The notes beneath the pieces were generated by a model that was not told the DNA's origin, made no database searches, and worked only from the letters and a program-made list of their open reading frames with translations. Below are positions 3,896 through 59,542 of a DNA stretch of 64,000 nucleotides, one piece after another. Every line of letters begins with the position of its first letter. Position 1 is the stretch's first letter. The stretch comes from Escherichia phage ST2, in sequence record OM982647; one strand, written 5' to 3'. The position numbers were made by a program, and so were the translations under genes.

Positions 3896-3930
3896 TGATA
3901 GTATCACACATCCATGTGTTTGTAAACTAT
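3896..3930 (-). promoter_or_regulatory. T4-type early promoter
   Basis: Minus strand GTTTACA, 18-nt spacer, GATACTAT -10. Confidence 0.5.
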
Positions 3931-6014
3931 CCTTGGACAAATTTAAACGGAACTGATTCTAAATCCATTAAAGATGCTAACAATTTCAAACCTTTAGGTG
4001 CACTAGTTTTTTCTACAAATGAGGAGAACGATACCGGCTCATCTGATTCGATTTCACCCGCCATAGCAACCACCTCGCCTGTTTCCATGAGAACATCGCC
4101 GTCGTAAATGACAGCTTCATCCAACTGGTCCGAGGACATGACTTCAGCTTGAATAAATTTAAGGTTGGATTCTAAACCTGCACCGGTGTCAGATGACGCA
4201 TCTGTAATTTTATTTATCTGCAAGAGAATGCCTCTAGGCAAAATAATTTCTTGCTCATTAGGGTGATTACTCAACTGTCCTGGATAAATCACGTTAACTT
4301 TATGGGCGCCATCAATAGCCCATCCAACGTTAACACGGATTTGTTCTGGTGCATGCATAGCTGTTCTTACTTGACTAGGAGAAATGGTAACACCTTCGTC
4401 ATTATTGTCAATGTTAAGCTCTTTGCGAACTTCTTCAGGAGCAAGTCCAAGGGCAACGTTCTCTTTAAACCCGCCGAAAATAATAGGAGCTAGTGAAGTG
4501 GAAACATAGTTTCTGAAGTAGAATACCTTATTTTTAACCATTGCTTCGTAAATAGGCATTCTGATAGACTGAGCTCTATATAACGTTAGTCCTTCAGGTA
4601 AACGGTCTCCATTTAAAAACGCCGAATCAAGACCATCAATAGCGCGTTTAACTTCATCTTCATCCGCAACATCGTAAAAATCTGGTTTATAACGACCTAA
4701 CAACATATTATTGATATCGGTATACGCAGAAGAGGCATATTCACGAATAGCTCGTTTTTCAGCAACAGAGTATTGTTTAGGGTCCCGATTCATTGTTATA
4801 TTAAAGGTGCCTCTAGCCGATTCTCGTGCATAAGTATACATCACATTAGACAAGAACGCTGATTTACGTTGTTTCCAAGTTTTTTCAGATACTTCAGCTA
4901 AAACATCGTCGGCCAGTTGGAAATTATCACGTCTAAAATCTTCAAACCATTCGTCTTTAATAGAGTCTGCAATTTCGTTTGCAGCTTCAACAAAAGCAGC
5001 TAATGCTTTAACAGATGTTGTTTTTTCAGTTTTAATTTTCTTAGCAAACTTTTCTAAAGTTGGCTTAATAACACTACCATAAGAAACTTCATCAGCAAAT
5101 CTAAAGGATTCATCAATACGATTATAAATCTTATTTTCGATATCAGCAACTAAAGTGCCTTTTGCTGTGGATGATGCTTGGGCTAGTACGATTTCATATG
5201 CTTCAGGAAGTAATTCGGCTGTAGCCGGGCCACTAACTTCTTTAGCAGAATTTTCGTATTTCTGGAATAACTCACCTTCTTGGCGGTCAGCTTCTAAAGA
5301 TTGGCTTGCGGCAATAGCGCGCCGAGAAATTTTAGTACGAGCAATAACAGGCTTATCTTTACGTTTTTCTTCTACAGCAGCAATAGAACCAGCGATAGCC
5401 GTTTCTTTGGTGACCTTTTCGCCAGTCTTTTTACTCACATAAACTTCGCCAACATCAGAATCTACTTTCGTGTACAACTCTGTGTTAATGTTAGGGATGC
5501 CTTTAATATCTTCAATGTTGGCATTTTTACGAACCATCATCACATAGGTGTGTTTACCTGTGAATTGATACATTGCCGACAATACTTTAAAACGACCACC
5601 GGTTTTAGTAGAAACTAAACGAGCAAGAAGAGTTTGAAGTTGTTGTCCGCGTCCTTTCAATTTCTTGGTAGGGAATCTGAACAGAACCGCGTCCATACGA
5701 AGAGCTTTAACCTGTTCATATACTGTATTGAAAATGGTGTTGATTGCATCAATAGGAGCAGGACCAAGACCGTTTTTCAATTCAGCGAGATTACCCTTTT
5801 CAGACAGACTCATAATAACGACATGAGCATATTTGTCGCCAAGTTTAACTTGTTTTACAGCATCGCCTTCAGAAAGGTAAGAGAATAAGCGAACTACGAT
5901 GTTTGTATCGATATCACCAATTTTCCAGACTTGTGGAACTTTAGCTTTAGGGTTCAAATTGACGACAGGAAGACTGCCTTCAGATTCAAACACTTCATTT
6001 AATTGTTCAGACAT
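3927..6014 (-). CDS. alt: Alt-like ADP-ribosyltransferase (virion-injected)
   Basis: 695 aa (T4 Alt 682 aa); R-S-EXE motifs LYRAQ / YVSTS / NEQEI; between 54 and 30 as in T4. Confidence 0.75.
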   Translation of the reverse strand: MSEQLNEVFESEGSLPVVNLNPKAKVPQVWKIGDIDTNIVVRLFSYLSEGDAVKQVKLGDKYAHVVIMSLSEKGNLAELKNGLGPAPIDAINTIFNTVYEQVKALRMDAVLFRFPTKKLKGRGQQLQTLLARLVSTKTGGRFKVLSAMYQFTGKHTYVMMVRKNANIEDIKGIPNINTELYTKVDSDVGEVYVSKKTGEKVTKETAIAGSIAAVEEKRKDKPVIARTKISRRAIAASQSLEADRQEGELFQKYENSAKEVSGPATAELLPEAYEIVLAQASSTAKGTLVADIENKIYNRIDESFRFADEVSYGSVIKPTLEKFAKKIKTEKTTSVKALAAFVEAANEIADSIKDEWFEDFRRDNFQLADDVLAEVSEKTWKQRKSAFLSNVMYTYARESARGTFNITMNRDPKQYSVAEKRAIREYASSAYTDINNMLLGRYKPDFYDVADEDEVKRAIDGLDSAFLNGDRLPEGLTLYRAQSIRMPIYEAMVKNKVFYFRNYVSTSLAPIIFGGFKENVALGLAPEEVRKELNIDNNDEGVTISPSQVRTAMHAPEQIRVNVGWAIDGAHKVNVIYPGQLSNHPNEQEIILPRGILLQINKITDASSDTGAGLESNLKFIQAEVMSSDQLDEAVIYDGDVLMETGEVVAMAGEIESDEPVSFSSFVEKTSAPKGLKLLASLMDLESVPFKFVQG

Positions 6015-6054
6015 AGTGTTTTCCTTTTAGTAATAATTTATATTTATGCCAAAA

Positions 6055-6070
6055 AGAGCCCGAAGGCTCT
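6055..6070 (-). terminator. UUCG-tetraloop hairpin
   Basis: AGAGCC-CGAA-GGCTCT on + strand (UUCG loop on transcript), followed by U-run. Confidence 0.5.
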
Positions 6071-6258
6071 TAATCCACAATCGGGAGCAAAGTACGATAA
6101 ACTTCAAAATTAGGGCCTTTTTCGTACCCATTAACGTTATCTACGAAAACCCGATACGAATTTTCATTAGGAAAATCTAATATAATCTGAGAGCAAGAGG
6201 TGGAAACATCTCCACCATCCTTCTTAGCTACAATAACTGTTTCTAAATAAGCTTTCAT
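6070..6258 (-). CDS. Hypothetical small protein, start coupled to ligase stop
   Basis: ATG at 6258 overlaps gene 30 stop (TAATG); 62 aa. Confidence 0.4.
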   Translation of the reverse strand: MKAYLETVIVAKKDGGDVSTSCSQIILDFPNENSYRVFVDNVNGYEKGPNFEVYRTLLPIVD

Positions 6259-7751
6259 TATAAACCTGTCTGGGACCACGGTCCAAATACGTCTTCAAAT
6301 GAATCCGCTTCTGTTTTATCAAAACGGAACCCTTTAATAATTGGAAGGAAAATACCTACAGTACCTTCACGGCCTTTAGAATGAACCCAACCATTACATT
6401 CACAATCAGCGATACGTCCAATTAATTTACCTTCACGAGCTTCGGTCATTAATCGTTCACGGTCTAAATCATGACGCTCGTCTAAAGGAATAAGAACCTT
6501 TACACCATCAACTGTTTTATGAGTTGTATCTTTAAAACCTGAACCACAATCGGTTGTAATACGACGACAACGTGATACGAGTTCGACACCACCTAATTTG
6601 TTAGGGTCTTTAGAGTGTTCATAGTATCCTACAACTTCTAAAGCGATATCAATAACTTCTTTAAATTTAATTAGATTCTTAGAGCGTTTGTTTTCCCAAT
6701 ATGAATCACGGTTTTTAAGGATAATACCTTCAAGACCTTGGTCAACATATTTTTTATAAACCACTTTAGCTTCGTCAAGATTACGAACTAACTGATTTTC
6801 AATTGGCTCAATTCGCTTAAAGCCTTCAGCCATATTTTCAAGAGCAGCAAAACGAACATCGTATTTCTGACCTTTAATTTTGCCGTCAGAATAGACTTCA
6901 TCTAAAGGAACATAGTCCCAGGCTTGAAGAACCATACCTTCCGCTTCTTTAGGAGAAATAGTCCCTTGAAGAGATTTATTTGCTAAACCGTTTGAAGTGC
7001 TACGGTCTGCAACTTGTACTTCTTCGGATTCTTCATTATCACCAAATAAGAACGACAGGTCATTTCCTGAGCTCACAGCCTTTTTAATATCAAATGAATG
7101 ATAAACTAATTCACCGTCGATTAAAACCCCATTAGGGTGTCTTTCACGAGCTTCTTTAGTCATTTCCATTAGTTCATCTGCTAATAGAGTAAGACCATGG
7201 TATTCATTACCGGCACGAGAAAAGAATTGAACACCATCATCGCGAACTTCAGCGAAACAACGAGCACCATCGGCTTTTAATTGAGCAAATGCAGGCCATT
7301 TAATATTTTTAGTAATCAATTTCTCATCATATGCAGATGCTAACATCTGTGGCTGCAATTGAATAAGACCAGGCCACACCTTATTCGCGATAGACACTGA
7401 AGCACCTACTTCAAGGTCGCGCATCATTACACGACGAAGGACTTCTACATCATCAGGTTTACCATCAGCGATATAACCCATGAGCTCTTTAATTGCAGCA
7501 TTACCAGTGAGTTTACGAGTGGCTAATGTGAACTCAATAAAATCCAACATGTCATCTAATTCAAGAAGACCATACGCTTGAGACCTTTCACCTGGTCCTG
7601 GCCATTTCTTAATATAATACTGGATACCACGTGCATATGTTAAACGATACACACGTTCAAGTAATTTGTTGTCCTTATTTTTCTTAAGGATTTCTTGTTT
7701 TGTTTTAGTAGAACCGATCGCAGCTATTTGGTTTAAAATATCTAAAATCAT
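6258..7751 (-). CDS. 30: ATP-dependent DNA ligase
   Basis: 497 aa; N-terminus MILDILNQIAAIGSTKTKQEILKKNKDN and C-terminus ...FEDVFGPWSQTGL match my recollection of T4 ligase nearly residue for residue. Confidence 0.95.
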   Translation of the reverse strand: MILDILNQIAAIGSTKTKQEILKKNKDNKLLERVYRLTYARGIQYYIKKWPGPGERSQAYGLLELDDMLDFIEFTLATRKLTGNAAIKELMGYIADGKPDDVEVLRRVMMRDLEVGASVSIANKVWPGLIQLQPQMLASAYDEKLITKNIKWPAFAQLKADGARCFAEVRDDGVQFFSRAGNEYHGLTLLADELMEMTKEARERHPNGVLIDGELVYHSFDIKKAVSSGNDLSFLFGDNEESEEVQVADRSTSNGLANKSLQGTISPKEAEGMVLQAWDYVPLDEVYSDGKIKGQKYDVRFAALENMAEGFKRIEPIENQLVRNLDEAKVVYKKYVDQGLEGIILKNRDSYWENKRSKNLIKFKEVIDIALEVVGYYEHSKDPNKLGGVELVSRCRRITTDCGSGFKDTTHKTVDGVKVLIPLDERHDLDRERLMTEAREGKLIGRIADCECNGWVHSKGREGTVGIFLPIIKGFRFDKTEADSFEDVFGPWSQTGL

Positions 7752-8017
7752 TTGATGTCCTCGATTTTGGTTACGGTTCTATTATAAGCCACTTCATCTA
7801 GAAGCGATTTCAGCGTTTTCTGATAAGTGGTAATCCGTTTACCGAGTCCTTCAACGTAGTATTCTGAAATGTAGATGAACCCTTGTTCAACACACTCTTT
7901 AAATATTTCTGCGTCTTTTACTGAACGAAACAATGGCCAGTCTCGAAAGAACATGTTAACGTGACCGTAGTCACGCGTTGTGTTTTTACCATCTGTAATA
8001 TCATGAACTACAAACAT
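7748..8017 (-). CDS. Hypothetical protein (30.1 position)
   Basis: 89-aa ORF, ATGA overlap with ligase start. Confidence 0.45.
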   Translation of the reverse strand: MFVVHDITDGKNTTRDYGHVNMFFRDWPLFRSVKDAEIFKECVEQGFIYISEYYVEGLGKRITTYQKTLKSLLDEVAYNRTVTKIEDIK

Positions 8018-8026
8018 AAGTATCCC

Positions 8027-8851
8027 TTAACAATTTATAGACCAAGTCCATTTAGACGAATCTAAAGGAAAGTTTTGAATCGTCCACCACGGCCGCATAT
8101 CGGTTGGTCCTGGGGTTCGCCAGGTATATGGAGTACGTGTTGTCGAGGGGCCACCAATTTGATTAGGCCATGCACCTGGACTTGTTGCACCAGATTCTTT
8201 AAGCAAATCCGCCAATCGTTTTAAAAGGTCTTCACGATCTGAATCTGAATTATGCTCGGGTGGAACCAAACGAGATTCAATATCATCCCACGTGTGTACA
8301 CGTTGTGCAGTGCGAGGAATATCATCACGTTCACCACGAGCCAACCAATAAATCGGTACATTAAGAATTTCTGCCGCATGGTCACAGTGATGAGCTAAAT
8401 CGTCAACGTAACAAATCACGTTATATTTTGTTTTAGCTAGTTCGAATAATTGTTCCTTTGAAGAATCATGACCACACATCATTACTTCAGAGAAAGCGCC
8501 TGGGAACAAAGCGTTCAAATTAAATTGTCTATTCAATCGAGCATCAATTGAATCACCTAGCGCCGTCACGGCTACAAAATTATAGTCTTCTTTTAGTTTA
8601 TTGATAACTCGAAGAGCATCCGAATAAGGCGCTAAGTAACGAATAAAATCAGAGCGATTATATTTTTCTATTAATTGTTTACCAAGGTTATCGTCGGTAT
8701 TGAACAGTTTACCAGGAGAAATAAATTTTTCGTCCTGAATCATTTTTAAAATATGTTCTAATGGAAGATTATATTTTTGGGCAAAATAAGGAAGCCCAGA
8801 TTGCCAGCTTAAACATACACCATCAATATCAGTCAAAATAGTAGGTTTCAT
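8027..8851 (-). CDS. HAD-superfamily hydrolase-like protein (30.2 position) with W/P-rich C-terminal tail
   Basis: Motif I DIDGV near N-terminus, YVDDL motif; C-terminal 60 aa Trp/Pro/Thr-rich and GC-rich. Confidence 0.5.
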   Translation of the reverse strand: MKPTILTDIDGVCLSWQSGLPYFAQKYNLPLEHILKMIQDEKFISPGKLFNTDDNLGKQLIEKYNRSDFIRYLAPYSDALRVINKLKEDYNFVAVTALGDSIDARLNRQFNLNALFPGAFSEVMMCGHDSSKEQLFELAKTKYNVICYVDDLAHHCDHAAEILNVPIYWLARGERDDIPRTAQRVHTWDDIESRLVPPEHNSDSDREDLLKRLADLLKESGATSPGAWPNQIGGPSTTRTPYTWRTPGPTDMRPWWTIQNFPLDSSKWTWSINC

Positions 8852-9300
8852 AAAGAGTCTCTTAATAGGTTTAACACATCAATAAATTCAACTTCGGTTA
8901 GTATTGTATCATCTTTTGTTAGGTGGCTGGCCATGCTGTGCTTCAAAATTTTTCCTTTAGAGGCTTGTAATGCATCACGAAACCCCTTGTTTTGGATCGC
9001 GGCTTCAAAATATGCATTTGTATATAATTCTTTCCACGCTTCGGAGTATCTTGAAAATGGAACTCCTAACCAGAAGAGAGTCCCACGGTCCTGAGCTCTT
9101 GCATAAGACCTTCCAGCTTGCTGTGCAGCCAATCCAGACAACCTGAATATACGTCTTTGTTGTTCAACATTTTTCACCTTACATCCTTGGAGAAATCCTT
9201 CAAGTCCTCCGAATTGAATACCATCCATGACGAAAGGCCATTGGGCGAAGTTACTTAATGCACATGACGGCCATGGAAAATTGCTTCTGATTTCAATCAT
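8848..9300 (-). CDS. NADAR-domain-like protein (30.3 position), candidate ADP-ribose processing enzyme
   Basis: SNFAQWPF ... GLEGFLQGCK ... WKELYTNAYFEAAIQNKGFRDAL pattern resembles NADAR/YbiA family. Confidence 0.45.
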   Translation of the reverse strand: MIEIRSNFPWPSCALSNFAQWPFVMDGIQFGGLEGFLQGCKVKNVEQQRRIFRLSGLAAQQAGRSYARAQDRGTLFWLGVPFSRYSEAWKELYTNAYFEAAIQNKGFRDALQASKGKILKHSMASHLTKDDTILTEVEFIDVLNLLRDSL

Positions 9301-9491
9301 AGTCTTTTAAGGCTTTTGATAACTTCTAATTCAGAACTCATGCGAACGTCTTCAGTTCCATCGACCCATAGGACGGTGTAGGCTTCTTTAATTTGAGTAT
9401 TACCTAATTTAAAAGCAGGTAGAACCTTTGAAATCATTCCAGGAATACCTATGCCTTTTAACTGGACTGTTTGCGATAAAAATAGTTGCAT
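9297..9491 (-). CDS. Hypothetical small protein
   Basis: 64-aa ORF; ATG overlaps upstream stop (TAATG). Confidence 0.4.
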   Translation of the reverse strand: MQLFLSQTVQLKGIGIPGMISKVLPAFKLGNTQIKEAYTVLWVDGTEDVRMSSELEVIKSLKRL

Positions 9492-9778
9492 TAGAACCTC
9501 ATCTGGAACCCGTGTGATTTAACATTACCACCGTAGATGTCAGAGGTATTGACTTCACGGGCGGCACTATGGACGATATTGATATCGTGGTTGAGCTTAG
9601 TGATTGCTAAGGTATCACGGCCGTTAACAGTACGGAATTCTACCGGGCACACAACATCAGCATAAGCCTTAATAGATTCACGAGTAGGTTGTTTGTCGGC
9701 AGGAACGTCTTTACCTGCTTTAGAGAAAACAACTTCACAGAAATTTTTACGAGTATCGAAATAAGTGGTCATAAACAT
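9491..9778 (-). CDS. Hypothetical protein; start trimmed to ATG after hairpin
   Basis: ATG at 9778 with SD GAGGAAAATATT; track start lies inside terminator hairpin. Confidence 0.45.
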   Translation of the reverse strand: MFMTTYFDTRKNFCEVVFSKAGKDVPADKQPTRESIKAYADVVCPVEFRTVNGRDTLAITKLNHDINIVHSAAREVNTSDIYGGNVKSHGFQMRF

Positions 9779-9793
9779 AATATTTTCCTCAAA

Positions 9794-9809
9794 GGAGGCC
9801 GAAGCCTCC
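9794..9809 (-). terminator. UUCG-tetraloop hairpin
   Basis: GGAGGC-CGAA-GCCTCC. Confidence 0.5.
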
Positions 9810-9818
9810 ATTTTAAGA

Positions 9819-10184
9819 TTAGATATCGAATTCGTTAAGAACTACATCAAAGATTGCTTCGAGATGTTCAGGTTTAGCTCGGTTACTCAGGATATGACGA
9901 ATCCAAGTTTTAACCAGAAGTTTACGATTAACACCATTCCAGCAAGGATGAGTACCTAAATCACGTTGACGGAAATCGTCATCTAATGCAATTTTGAAGT
10001 TGGAACCTTCCATCGTGATTGAAACCGTGATGCCGTTTTCAAATCGCATATAAACGTAATTAGGAGTCATGCACTGTTCGATTTCACAAACTGAACCGTT
10101 ATTATGCTTCCATAAGCAAATAACTTCAGAAGAACCAGCGATACCGTTAGAAACATATTTACGTTCGAAGTTGGTGTAGTTCAT
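9819..10184 (-). CDS. Hypothetical protein
   Basis: 121-aa ORF with own early promoter. Confidence 0.45.
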   Translation of the reverse strand: MNYTNFERKYVSNGIAGSSEVICLWKHNNGSVCEIEQCMTPNYVYMRFENGITVSITMEGSNFKIALDDDFRQRDLGTHPCWNGVNRKLLVKTWIRHILSNRAKPEHLEAIFDVVLNEFDI

Positions 10185-10221
10185 TTTATTCTCCAGATGT
10201 TTAAGTTGTTTGTTGGTACAG

Positions 10222-10256
10222 GTCTATAATAACATAACCTGTACCAAAGTAAACAT
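10222..10256 (-). promoter_or_regulatory. T4-type early promoter with 8-bp inverted repeat flanking -10
   Basis: GTTTAC, 17-nt spacer, TATTAT; GGTACAGG/CCTGTACC arms at 10215..10245. Confidence 0.5.
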
Positions 10257-10258
10257 TT

Positions 10259-10630
10259 TTATTTGATTTTTGTCCACTTAGCTGAATCAATAACACCTTT
10301 TGCTTTAATCTTCTCAATTAATGACTCTGCGCGATTTCTGGCGTTTTCGTACCATACAACATCTTCAGAGTAACCAGTTTCTTCATCTTCGTAAGTTTTA
10401 GAACGAATACAGCCGTAAACTGTAGAATTCAGGCGGTAAATTTCACCAGTGAAAAAGTTTTCGATTTCGATATGATAACAAAAATCGTCTGAAGGGCCAT
10501 CAGGAGTTGTACAATAAACCACATCACCTTGAACTGAACGAACCATCCACTGTAACTCGTTAACAACTTGAGATTTATATCCATCATGGTCGCGGCATTT
10601 AATTGTAGCATTTAAATTGATAGTGTTCAT
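10259..10630 (-). CDS. Hypothetical protein
   Basis: 123-aa ORF with own early promoter. Confidence 0.45.
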   Translation of the reverse strand: MNTINLNATIKCRDHDGYKSQVVNELQWMVRSVQGDVVYCTTPDGPSDDFCYHIEIENFFTGEIYRLNSTVYGCIRSKTYEDEETGYSEDVVWYENARNRAESLIEKIKAKGVIDSAKWTKIK

Positions 10631-10664
10631 TTTATTCTCCGGTTGTTTTATTGATTAGGTGGTA

Positions 10665-10702
10665 CAAGTCTATAGTAACACATCCTACAGGAGAGTAAAC
10701 AT
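10665..10702 (-). promoter_or_regulatory. T4-type early promoter
   Basis: GTTTAC (10695..10700 revcomp), -10 TACTATAG. Confidence 0.45.
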
Positions 10703-10736
10703 CTTTTTAAACTTTTTCTGCCCTAAACGCACAAAA

Positions 10737-10754
10737 GGGAGACCGAAGTCTCCC
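10737..10754 (-). terminator. UUCG-tetraloop intrinsic terminator
   Basis: GGGAGAC-CGAA-GTCTCCC, followed by UUUU on transcript. Confidence 0.6.
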
Positions 10755-10759
10755 TAAAA

Positions 10760-10939
10760 TTATGCAACAACCTTTCCAAAACGAGAAGCATCATCTCGAA
10801 GAACTGCACGTGCTCTGCGCATGATCTTCTCAACTGTTTGATTAATACGAGAGTTCGACCCACGCTTGTATCCAGCGCGTTTAGAGGTACCATCAACTTT
10901 CTTTTCAACTGCTTTCTTTGCTTTAGCTTGTTTTGCCAT
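10760..10939 (-). CDS. Small basic protein, 59 aa (MAKQAKAKKAVEKK...), absent from ORF track
   Basis: ATG..TAA ORF translated by hand; lies between long non-coding stretch and strong terminator; track instead lists overlapping TTG-start ORF in another frame. Confidence 0.4.
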   Translation of the reverse strand: MAKQAKAKKAVEKKVDGTSKRAGYKRGSNSRINQTVEKIMRRARAVLRDDASRFGKVVA

Positions 10940-11202
10940 TATAAATTCTCTTTAAATGAAAATGCAGGACTTATTGACATTGCCTGCGCAAGCCCTCAAG
11001 GGGAACATAGGTTTTGAATATTTACCGACAGGATAACCATAAACCCGTCATCATACCAACCACGACTTAGACAGATAACCTTTTTCTGACGCGTGATAGT
11101 ACAAAATACATTCAAGAGGTACACCGTAAAACTGCCGGGGTCTTAAAACTATAATGATTCGCAAATCATTAATCAGACAGTTCGACGGCTCCTCGATTTA
11201 AC

Positions 11203-11451
11203 TTACTTCAGGGTAATAACAAAATGACGTACTGCTTTACGAGCCGCAGAAGCCAAAGGCTTAGCATATTTCAGTTCATCTTTTGCTTCCAGTTCAGAGG
11301 CCAATACAGCTTGGGCAGGGTTCAGATGTTTGAAATAACGCAGGATTTCCAATGCTTCGGCTTCAACATCAATAGATGCACCGTAGTTTTCGTGACCATT
11401 ATTCCATGCGTTTCGTTGCAGTTCAAGAGCGTGTTGTAATTGTTTAATCAT
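11203..11451 (-). CDS. rIII: rIII lysis-inhibition accessory protein
   Basis: 82 aa as in T4; position downstream of gene 31. Confidence 0.75.
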   Translation of the reverse strand: MIKQLQHALELQRNAWNNGHENYGASIDVEAEALEILRYFKHLNPAQAVLASELEAKDELKYAKPLASAARKAVRHFVITLK

Positions 11452-11567
11452 TTTAAATTCTCAATTCGAGATAATATTTAGTAGCCACGTTCGTCTGAAT
11501 TTCACCTTCTTTCGACAAGTCTCTCAGTTGTAGGCTACCGCTTAGAAGAGTGTTCTCTTCATATAGT

Positions 11568-11575
11568 TATTTATA
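11568..11575 (-). promoter_or_regulatory. Late promoter core TATAAATA
   Basis: Exact TATAAATA on minus strand immediately after gene 31 stop, about 115 nt upstream of rIII. Confidence 0.4.
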
Positions 11576-11908
11576 TCACTTATAAAGACACGGAATAGCT
11601 TTATAGTGGCATGTTACGAATTTCTGTTTAATTTCTTTAGGTTGTTTAAGTCCCAAAGCCACAAATGGATGTGGAACATTTCGAATTTGTCCAACTGGTA
11701 GTGGAGTCAAATCACCGACTTCAACAAAACCTTCAGGAACATCAGGACCTACAGAATGAACTACACATAGTTCAGGAACTTCACCTTGAACACGTTTACC
11801 AATCACAAGTCCTGATTCGGTAACTTCTTCATCACCTGCTTGAGCGGGTTCAGAAACCAGAATAACATATTCACCAACAGCACGAATTGGGAGTTGTACT
11901 TCAGACAT
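11576..11908 (-). CDS. 31: GroES-like co-chaperonin for capsid protein folding
   Basis: 110 aa; [34 protein letters not shown]... near-identical to T4 gp31 as I recall it. Confidence 0.9.
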
Positions 11909-11934
11909 CTTATTTCCTTGTTGTTTGACGATAG

Positions 11935-11965
11935 ATTAATAATACCATACTATTCGTAAAGCATA
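11935..11965 (-). promoter_or_regulatory. MotA-dependent middle promoter for gene 31
   Basis: Minus strand TATGCTTTAC (MotA box) then 12 nt then TATTAT. Confidence 0.5.
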
Positions 11966-12274
11966 TTACATAAGAAGCAAACGTTCAACCGGAGTACCAT
12001 CAACCGAAATTACTTTATCAAGGCGGAAAGAACGCCACTGACCTAACTCGGTATCGAATGCTCGAACTGATTCACGAGGTTCATAACGAACTTCTGTTGC
12101 CGGATTGTTATTTTCATATTTGACTTCAAGTTCATCGCGCGAAGCAAACATAGTGCGTACCTCGCCGTTAGCCTTTTCAAATACAACACAATGAACGCCT
12201 ACAGACAGAATAGTTTTAATACGTTCACGAAGAACCATAGTTTCTTGTTCAGTTAAAATCATATTATTCACCAC
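11966..12274 (-). CDS. Hypothetical protein (31.1/31.2 position)
   Basis: 102-aa ORF overlapping cd start region. Confidence 0.45.
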   Translation of the reverse strand: MVNNMILTEQETMVLRERIKTILSVGVHCVVFEKANGEVRTMFASRDELEVKYENNNPATEVRYEPRESVRAFDTELGQWRSFRLDKVISVDGTPVERLLLM

Positions 12275-12845
12275 AAAAGTTTCGAATTTGTTCCCAATTC
12301 AGAGAACGAAGATTATTACGAGAGTACTGAATTACTTCAATACCAGCTTGTTTTAGAATGTCGGCCCAATTTTCAGGAGATCTGTCATATAATTCTGCGT
12401 ATACAACCTTTTTAATACCTGACTGCGTAATAGCTTTAGTGCAATCAGGACACGGAGAAAGCGTAGTATATAACGTAGCACCTTCAATAGAATTACCTTT
12501 ACGAGCTGCAAACAAAATTGCATTCAATTCCGCATGGATTTCATTATTAGCAGACCATGCACTATGAGCGGCCCGATGTTCTTTAGCCAAAACAAAATTA
12601 TCCACCCGTCCAAATGCTGTAGTGCCTTCTTTATGCCCAGCAACGATGACCGGGCTTGGTTTATTCTTCAACCAACCGTTTTCGGATGCATGTTCGCAAC
12701 AGTTTGTACCACCTGAAGGAGAGCCATTATAACCTGTAGAAATAATGCGTCCATCTTTTTCAATGACGGCACCAACTTTCCATGAACAACATTTTGATTC
12801 TTGAGAAATCAGATATGCAATCTGAAGGTATGTGCTAGCTTTCAT
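12264..12845 (-). CDS. cd: dCMP deaminase
   Basis: 193 aa; zinc-binding CxxC / HAE motifs; N-terminus MKASTYLQIAYLISQESKCCSWKVGAVIEK as in T4. Confidence 0.9.
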   Translation of the reverse strand: MKASTYLQIAYLISQESKCCSWKVGAVIEKDGRIISTGYNGSPSGGTNCCEHASENGWLKNKPSPVIVAGHKEGTTAFGRVDNFVLAKEHRAAHSAWSANNEIHAELNAILFAARKGNSIEGATLYTTLSPCPDCTKAITQSGIKKVVYAELYDRSPENWADILKQAGIEVIQYSRNNLRSLNWEQIRNFCGE

Positions 12846-58294: not shown

Positions 58295-58903
58295 TCAGTA
58301 ACTGACAATAGTCAGATTCCAGATTGTATAACGTCCATCTTGAATAATAGAATCTACACGCAGTGTAGTCCCTATAGGGAGCATAAATTCACATTCGTCA
58401 GATATAAGTCTAGCATTAGACCGTCTTGTCGCTTCAGGGAAAGCTCCATTGAACTCACAAGATGGCGCAGCCAGAATCATGTTAAGCATATGTTCACGGA
58501 AGTTGAAAGCAAATGGTGCATCTTTGATGCAGAACATATTAAATGTTCCGTAAAAATTATACGAAGCAAAGTTACGTGCTACACCGAACACTGGGCTGAA
58601 GCTCATTACTCTGTCAAATTTAATAATACTACCAATGCCTTTATCATCGAGTGTGGCCATAGTTTTCTTAGAGATTCCACGATACATTGTCTCAGGAACA
58701 GAAGACGACCAATTTCTACGAACAATTGCACTTAAATCTTGTTGGATGCTATCGGGCTTGTTTTCCATACACTGCCATAGTACACTTTGTTCAATGTCGC
58801 TGAATTGCTCATCGATTTTGTACTGAAGCATATCTTGATAATCCGGGCATTGAGCACGACGAACCATTTCCTCAATTTCACATTCATTATACGGCATAAA
58901 CAT
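58295..58903 (-). CDS. ModA/ModB-like ADP-ribosyltransferase, paralog 1
   Basis: 202 aa; R-S-EXE-like motifs MYRG / SFSPVFG / SDECEF; SD GGAG. Confidence 0.6.
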   Translation of the reverse strand: MFMPYNECEIEEMVRRAQCPDYQDMLQYKIDEQFSDIEQSVLWQCMENKPDSIQQDLSAIVRRNWSSSVPETMYRGISKKTMATLDDKGIGSIIKFDRVMSFSPVFGVARNFASYNFYGTFNMFCIKDAPFAFNFREHMLNMILAAPSCEFNGAFPEATRRSNARLISDECEFMLPIGTTLRVDSIIQDGRYTIWNLTIVSY

Positions 58904-58960
58904 TTATGTTTCTCCTGTGGTTGATAAAGATATAGTATCATCATCGGAAGAGTTTGTACA

Positions 58961-59542
58961 CTAAAAATTCAACATTTTCAAATGAATGATTTTGTATAAT
59001 CGAGATAAAGGGTCATATTCTAAGTCTTCAATTTCCACAATCTCAAATCTAGAGATACCTGAGACCATGTACTCTTGTTCAGATTCAATCATATCTAGGA
59101 CGTCAACACGCTTTTCTTCCATAACATGCTTAGGGTTCTTTCCGGCGAGTACAATGTTAACCATGTTTTGGTAGTAATCAAAAATGAATGGAGCATTCCT
59201 GAGACTAAGAATAGTGTACGTCTGATATTCCCATATCCCGGAGAATTGACGAGCTGTACTGAAATCAGTTGTGAACGATGTTACTCGTCCAGGAGACCAA
59301 TGGCATCCAACAGAAAGAAGGGAAAGACGTTCTGCTTCTTCTGGAGTTACACCACGGTAGAGTTCTACTGGTACTGTAGAAGTCATATGCTTACGAACAA
59401 GATGGTCTAATTCATAGTGGAAATCCGGGTCTTCCTTAGAATCGGTGCAAGCCCAGAGAATGTTTTGTTCTTGGCGGGTGAATTTGCTATCAATCAGATT
59501 TGTTAGGTATTCACGTTCTTGAAGTTCAGATTGACATGTCAT
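58961..59542 (-). CDS. ModA/ModB-like ADP-ribosyltransferase, paralog 2
   Basis: 193 aa; LYRG / SFTTDFS / ESEQEY; SD GGAGG. Confidence 0.6.
   Translation of the reverse strand: MTCQSELQEREYLTNLIDSKFTRQEQNILWACTDSKEDPDFHYELDHLVRKHMTSTVPVELYRGVTPEEAERLSLLSVGCHWSPGRVTSFTTDFSTARQFSGIWEYQTYTILSLRNAPFIFDYYQNMVNIVLAGKNPKHVMEEKRVDVLDMIESEQEYMVSGISRFEIVEIEDLEYDPLSRLYKIIHLKMLNF

Follow-up and report, generated by a model that had tools for sequence, protein, structure and literature searches.

Gene 30.3 (adfN) of Escherichia phage ST2 and its probable role as a NADAR-type ADP-ribosylglycohydrolase against the DarTG1 defense

Which ADP-ribosylation does the NADAR-like protein of Escherichia phage ST2 remove, and whose? 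The question is raised by a stretch of 64,000 nucleotides of sequence record OM982647, hereafter the window, in which an original prediction, made from the letters alone, had placed a NADAR/YbiA-like gene and proposed that its product reverses host or phage ADP-ribosylation, be it in a toolkit with the ADP-ribosyltransferases of the same window or in defense against DarT-type toxins. Our analysis indicates that this gene very probably encodes AdfN (gp30.3 of phage T4), a stand-alone glycohydrolase of the NADAR fold that would act against the toxin DarT1 by enzymatic reversal. The predicted open reading frame (ORF) is real, running from ATG to stop over 150 codons of the minus strand and containing all motifs on which the prediction was built. 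The gene and the elements that carry its assignment are the following, conservation counts here and below being taken over 46 divergent members of the gp30.3 family:

8848..9300, minus strand: adfN (ortholog of T4 gene 30.3), predicted single-domain phage-type NADAR ADP-ribosylglycohydrolase of 150 residues
9199..9201, minus strand: codon of E34 (ttc on the plus strand, GAA on the minus strand), equivalent to catalytic E36 of AdfN-T4 and E43 of PnNADAR; invariant (46/46)
9178..9180, minus strand: codon of K41, equivalent to K43 of AdfN-T4 and K50 of PnNADAR (phosphate coordination); lysine in 41/46 and arginine in 3/46
8938..8940, minus strand: codon of H121, the phage-NADAR histidine in the last strand (predicted strand 119-121); invariant (46/46)
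8854..8895, minus strand: complete C-terminal helix, residues 136-149 (predicted), with T135 and E138 invariant or nearly so

The family is readily assigned. The window protein matches the Pfam family PF08010 (Phage_30_3, 'Bacteriophage protein GP30.3') with E=9.1e-69 and 230.1 bits against a curated cut-off of 36, covering positions 2-138 of the 138 positions of the model. T4 gp30.3 is 95% identical over 149 residues with an alignment that reaches the last residue, and in both phages the gene has 30.2 on one side and the 30.x genes upstream on the other, and the two proteins share the Glu/Lys/His set and the full-length C-terminal helix; the window protein differs in being two residues shorter at the N-terminus and in eight substitutions. 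The gene is one of a closely spaced series on the minus strand, in which the order of the T4-type 30.x block is kept (30 encoding the ligase, 30.1, 30.2, 30.3, 30.5-30.9 and rIII), with only 30.4 missing. By sequence and gene order adfN of the window is thus the ortholog of T4 gene 30.3. Megablast of the adfN region matched 749 phage records, most of which bear the name of an Escherichia or Shigella phage; the best match reached about 95% identity, and the window is accordingly part of a T4-like phage. The gene itself is widespread, as tblastn found it in 1510 of 50,697 phage records, 1503 of these matches covering at least 80% of the query, and the hosts include Escherichia, Klebsiella, Aeromonas, Acinetobacter and Vibrio. 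A gp30.3 profile search of 1.84 billion cluster representatives yielded 1385 clusters at E<=0.001. General annotation resources say little of its function: NCBIfam gave no match for the window protein, PHROGs only a family of 'unknown function', and the PADLOC defense models no DarG-type match, the sole match being noise at E=0.035.

Is the protein a NADAR? There is no direct match to PF08719, the NADAR family of Pfam, at E<=1, and the relationship was therefore tested separately. The only PDB sequence found at E<10 was E. coli YbiA (PDB 2b3w), the founding member of the NADAR/YbiA fold, with E=0.29 for the single sequence and 8.8e-4 for a profile of 10 family sequences. When the profile of the 46 family members was compared with YbiA by hhalign, the probability rose to 94.7% (E=6.1e-8) over 133 columns, nearly all of YbiA. 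Moreover, 5 of 50 distant gp30.3-family proteins match both PF08010 and PF08719 (best E=1.2e-6) and bridge the two families. The structure model has the YbiA fold, a helical core with flanking small beta-sheets, and is of low confidence in residues 1-20 (predicted local distance difference test, pLDDT, 51-56). The catalytic E-x6-K motif is present together with a conserved charged or histidine residue in the last strand; E34 and K41 align with the YbiA glutamate and lysine. Profile and fold tests hence bear out the predicted kinship, and membership of the window protein in the NADAR superfamily is supported at this level.

YbiA being the best PDB match in both structure and sequence, the phage protein could be imagined to be a housekeeping N-glycosidase acting on intermediates of the riboflavin pathway. 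YbiA itself is annotated as 'N-glycosidase YbiA', its gene adjoins dinG and ybiB, and YbiA-like proteins constitute the housekeeping branch of the family in riboflavin metabolism (Johannesman et al., Nat Commun 2025; PMC11825919). However, identity to YbiA is only about 20-26%, the T4 ortholog has a DarTG1 phenotype, and the glutamate that defines the YbiA type is replaced by the invariant H121. Such a histidine in the last strand is the hallmark of phage NADARs, replacing Glu of the YbiA type or Asp of the DarG1 type (literature including PMC11125620). In our hhalign comparison H121 falls one residue past the YbiA glutamate, and its exact structural equivalence for this reason rests on the published alignments; position 120, which adjoins H121, varies among the family members. 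YbiA furthermore gives no protection against DarT1 in vivo (PMC11125620). The chance that the window protein is such a housekeeping enzyme seems next to negligible.

What is known of the T4 protein makes the assignment to AdfN informative. Resistance of T-even phages to DarTG1 was mapped to gene 30.3, which was renamed adfN for anti-DarT factor NADAR; deletion of adfN makes T4 sensitive to DarTG1, purified AdfN-T4 strips ADP-ribose from DarT1-modified DNA, and no binding between AdfN-T4 and DarT1 was seen by two-hybrid assay (Johannesman et al., Nat Commun 2025; PMC11825919). In vitro the T4 NADAR cleaves guanine-ADP-ribose and not thymine-ADP-ribose (Cihlova et al., Toxins 2024; PMC11125620), and later work found it active on RNA guanine-ADP-ribose and inactive on cytosine-ADP-ribose. 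The construct used by Cihlova et al. is listed as residues 1-208 of T4 NADAR (gp30.3) (PMC11125620), and the annotated 30.3 ORF of T4 (L001:10308-10766) has 152 residues. A transposon screen of T4 under DarTG1, described in the HIDEN-SEQ preprint, returned only two significant genes, 30.3 with a log2 fold change of -7.25 and 30.4 with -1.79 (adjusted p=0.014). The alleles for which DarTG1 resistance has been demonstrated are those of T4 and T2 (PMC11825919; for T4 also in the HIDEN-SEQ preprint). That the protein removes ADP-ribose from guanine on DNA, as originally predicted, thus agrees with published experiments on a protein 95% identical to it (PMC11825919; PMC11125620).

From these data the following mode of action can be proposed for the window protein. 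Upon infection of a host carrying the DarTG1 defense, the DarT1 toxin would ADP-ribosylate guanine of the phage DNA and thereby block replication. AdfN would cleave the N-glycosidic bond between ADP-ribose and guanine, restoring unmodified DNA, such that replication could continue. In AdfN the phage would have borrowed an 'orphan antitoxin', one that reverses the modification enzymatically and not by binding the toxin. Since AdfN is specific for guanine-linked ADP-ribose, it should give no protection against DarTG2, which modifies thymine. The proposed role against DarT-type defense therefore holds for DarTG1 (PMC11825919; HIDEN-SEQ preprint) and fails for DarTG2, a narrower range than had been implied.

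Does this function carry over to ST2? The window protein is established as an ortholog of AdfN-T4 that has the NADAR fold, the conserved catalytic residues and a complete C-terminus. The E36A and K43A mutants of AdfN-T4 are defective, AdfN-T4 without its last 15 residues shows reduced activity, and this truncation resembles the frameshifted adfN allele of the DarTG1-sensitive phage RB69, which lacks the C-terminal helix (PMC11825919). It could be argued that the window gene is a decaying or inactive allele of the same kind, as gp30.3 often appears in protein databases in the form of truncated or fused fragments and as the N-terminus departs from that of T4 at a deletion junction. This is extremely unlikely given that the ORF is full-length, that the C-terminal helix and all catalytic residues are present, and that codon comparison with T4 counts 31 synonymous against 8 nonsynonymous changes. 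Several tblastn matches in other phages stop at residue 142 and at first resembled C-terminal truncations; one of them (L007) was checked, its hidden Markov model match spans the whole ORF, and such endings are read as alignment artefacts. Because the catalytic residues and the complete helix are kept and synonymous changes prevail, guanine-ADP-ribose hydrolysis and DarTG1 resistance can be transferred from T4 AdfN to the window protein with high confidence.

Several points weigh against this transfer. The biochemistry and the phenotype were established in T4, and the ST2 protein bears eight aligned substitutions relative to AdfN-T4 and a shorter N-terminus (MIEIR versus MSELEIR) in the low-confidence part of the model. 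The upstream gene 30.4, the weaker hit of the T4 screen, is absent from the window, and the expression context accordingly differs from that of T4. In addition, T4 NADAR fails to rescue cells from DarT1 (Cihlova et al., PMC11125620), and AdfN-T4, which leaves DarT1 toxic in uninfected cells and gives hardly any rescue of T5 or Bas25 (PMC11125620; PMC11825919), is fully effective only during T-even infection (PMC11825919), whereby its mechanism in vivo is only partly explained.

How does the window protein relate to other enzymes that counteract DarT toxins? DarG1, the NADAR antitoxin of DarTG1 (e.g., the G. lovleyi NADAR, PDB 8bat, or the E. coli C7 NADAR), differs in four respects: 1) no DarT gene adjoins the window gene, both neighbours being orthologs of T4 30.x genes (a HAD phosphatase and a 64-residue protein) and neither a DarT1, and the nearest ADP-ribosyltransferase being Alt, which belongs to the exoenzyme-type family PF03496 and not to a DarT family; 2) DarG1 has Asp in the last strand where the window protein has His; 3) DarG1 carries an N-terminal extension with a DNA-binding channel, whereas the window protein consists of the bare core domain, as the literature describes for phage NADAR; and 4) AdfN-T4 cannot replace DarG1 in uninfected cells (PMC11125620; PMC11825919). 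AdfN-Bas32 and AdfN-Bas60 of T5-like and Vequintavirinae phages are likewise NADARs encoded by phages, which undo the ADP-ribosylation of guanine and overcome DarTG1 (PMC11825919). They descend from other NADAR branches by acquisitions independent of that of the T4 type, and they neutralize DarT1 without infection and rescue unrelated phages, whereas the T4 type has full activity in T-even infection only (PMC11825919). AdfM (T4 Tk.4) resembles AdfN in being a phage-encoded, orphan antitoxin-like hydrolase directed against a DarT toxin (HIDEN-SEQ preprint), but it has an unrelated macrodomain fold, acts on thymine-linked ADP-ribose (DarTG2) and is encoded at a different locus.

The immediate surroundings of adfN depart from those in T4. 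The features concerned are:

9297..9491, minus strand: 30.5 ortholog (64 residues), directly abutting adfN, 66% identical to T4 30.5
9297..9300, minus strand: ATGA overlap (sequence) of the stop of the 30.5 ortholog and the start of adfN, also the junction at which T4 gene 30.4 is missing
8848..8851, minus strand: ATGA overlap of the stop of adfN and the start of gene 30.2 (sequence and ORF coordinates)

Gene 30.4 sits between 30.5 and 30.3 in all 12 close viral loci (L003-L014), whereas in the window it is deleted: T4 30.4 has no tblastn match anywhere in the window, adfN abuts the 30.5 ortholog, and the deletion junction coincides with the altered N-terminus of AdfN. Being the second significant gene of the T4 screen, 30.4 suggests itself as encoding a co-factor of AdfN; its signal was judged a probable polar effect, because T4 30.4 overlaps the start of 30.3 and because the gene is absent from the window. 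An internal out-of-frame ORF annotated in T4 as 30.3' (window 8946..9170, minus strand) is broken in ST2 by a stop at codon 35, which argues against 30.3' being a conserved gene. Identity to T4 is strongly mosaic. Within 3927..11451 it amounts to 95% for AdfN, 96% for 30.9, 93% for 30.7 and 93% for rIII, against 69% for 30.2, 66% for 30.5, 64% for the ligase, 58% for 30.1, 41% for Alt and 39% for 30.8; for the Mod pair at 58295..59542 it is 32-38%. The genes flanking adfN are only 58-69% identical to their T4 counterparts. The ligase ORF has 497 codons in the window versus 487 in T4. Since the locus is syntenic with T4 from 30.9 to 30 and the ORFs overlap on both sides, adfN is presumably expressed before late infection. 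A promoter and terminator scan of 6000..12500 found sites no more common than in shuffled sequence, and no conclusions on transcription units were drawn from it.

Could AdfN instead serve the ADP-ribosyltransferases of the phage itself? The three genes, Alt and a ModA/ModB-like pair, were found where the original prediction had placed them:

3927..6014, minus strand: Alt-like ADP-ribosyltransferase (PF03496, E=6e-28), 41% identical to T4 Alt
58295..58903 and 58961..59542, minus strand: two tandem ModA/ModB-like ADP-ribosyltransferase genes (phrog_832, E about 1e-38), 32-38% identical to T4 ModA/ModB

By BLAST the closer T4 relative of both Mod-like ORFs is ModB (E=5e-34 and 5e-27) and not ModA; a match to T4 ModA (E=4e-20) was obtained as well for the ORF in the ModA position, and none was reported for the other. 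They are 31% identical to each other, and the E-x-E motif appears by eye to be kept in both. In a writer/eraser toolkit the NADAR would reverse or tune the ADP-ribosylation, or RNAylation, carried out by Alt, ModA and ModB. All four genes lie within the window, T4-like NADARs were noted to be expressed early alongside ADP-ribosyltransferases (Iyer et al. 2022; PMC9503650), and we found no literature report of AdfN having been assayed on Alt or Mod products. However, by their annotation T4 Alt, ModA and ModB ADP-ribosylate proteins of the host, whereas all activities shown for the T4 NADAR concern guanine-linked ADP-ribose of DNA or RNA. The genes are not adjacent either, Alt being separated from adfN by 2.8 kb and three genes and the Mod pair by about 49 kb, nor do they co-vary, as adfN is 95% identical to T4 and the transferases are 32-41% identical, indicating that they do not travel together. 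Furthermore, insertions in T4 alt (log2 fold change -0.01), modA (+0.11) and modB (+0.13) were unaffected under DarTG1 (HIDEN-SEQ preprint), and T4 30.3 is non-essential on plain K-12, where 27 of 28 sites were hit by insertions. With protein targets on one side and nucleic acids on the other, and no DarTG1 phenotype for alt, modA or modB, the toolkit found no support and is very unlikely.

The downstream neighbour of adfN lies outside the anti-DarT mechanism and is given here as context:

8027..8851, minus strand: gene 30.2, HAD-superfamily phosphatase similar to 5'(3')-deoxyribonucleotidases; C-terminal tail disordered

Consistent with the HAD catalytic motifs, gp30.2 has invariant D8, D10, K132 and D150-D151 and an almost invariant T96; the structure model has a mean pLDDT of 82 and residues 223-274 are disordered. 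A role of gp30.2 as the T-even co-factor of AdfN in DarTG1 defense was considered and rejected, since DarTG1 does not deplete insertions in T4 30.2 (log2 fold change -0.12, p=0.61; HIDEN-SEQ preprint), meaning that gp30.2 is not needed for that function. AdfN and gp30.2 might nevertheless form a two-enzyme module on a substrate other than phage DNA modified by DarT1, a candidate being ADP-ribosylated guanine nucleotides of the salvaged pool; a second substrate of AdfN among the products of Alt, ModA or ModB would be a further possibility. For the module speak 1) the ATGA overlap of adfN and 30.2; 2) the 30.2-like genes that 26 of 80 viral loci carry no more than 4 kb from the NADAR gene, 25 of the 26 downstream on the same strand; 3) the metagenomic gp30.3-family relative P0076, a clear NADAR-NT5C fusion, alongside a weaker HAD match in P0097; and 4) the confinement of full AdfN-T4 activity to T-even infection (PMC11825919). 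Against it stand the 54 of 80 loci without a 30.2-like neighbour and the missing DarTG1 phenotype of T4 30.2, alt, modA and modB insertions. A comparison of gp30.2 with the NT5C half of P0076 by hhalign was marginal (E=5e-4, probability 30%), and phmmer of gp30.2 against all collected proteins gave no match. Taken together, we regard these possibilities as tentative and rather unlikely. The distant gp30.3-family proteins (P0024, P0026, P0029, P0039, P0113, P0076, P0097, P0138 and P0141) include tandem double-NADAR proteins of about 290 residues as well as fusions with NT5C or HAD, BspA-type leucine-rich repeat, LGT, GDSL-lipase and FtsW-like domains.

The nucleotidase-like HAD neighbour and the few NADAR-NT5C fusion relatives would also fit the processing of small-molecule nucleotides. 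On contextual grounds and before any biochemistry, Iyer et al. 2022 (PMC9503650) proposed a role of this sort, in which the enzyme would mainly degrade soluble ADP-ribose-derived immune signals or by-products and not DNA adducts. Direct experiments with T4 AdfN, however, show activity on DNA adducts and a phenotype specific for DarTG1, and no small-molecule substrate has been reported for the phage enzyme, making such a role highly improbable. The reading favored here accordingly remains that of AdfN as a guanine-directed glycohydrolase against DarT1.

The NADAR and anti-DarT function as such is known, having been published in 2024-2025; as it was established on a protein 95% identical to that of ST2, the present finding is an annotation and not a discovery. 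What the window contributes is that 30.4, the weaker hit of the T4 DarTG1 screen, is naturally absent in ST2. The adjacent HAD phosphatase is an attractive candidate partner, yet dispensable in T4. More generally, AdfN exemplifies how a phage co-opts an antitoxin-like enzyme in order to undo a chemical modification set on its DNA by a bacterial defense. The intact adfN gene predicts that ST2 would plate on E. coli carrying DarTG1, which may be useful for choosing or engineering therapeutic T4-like phages.
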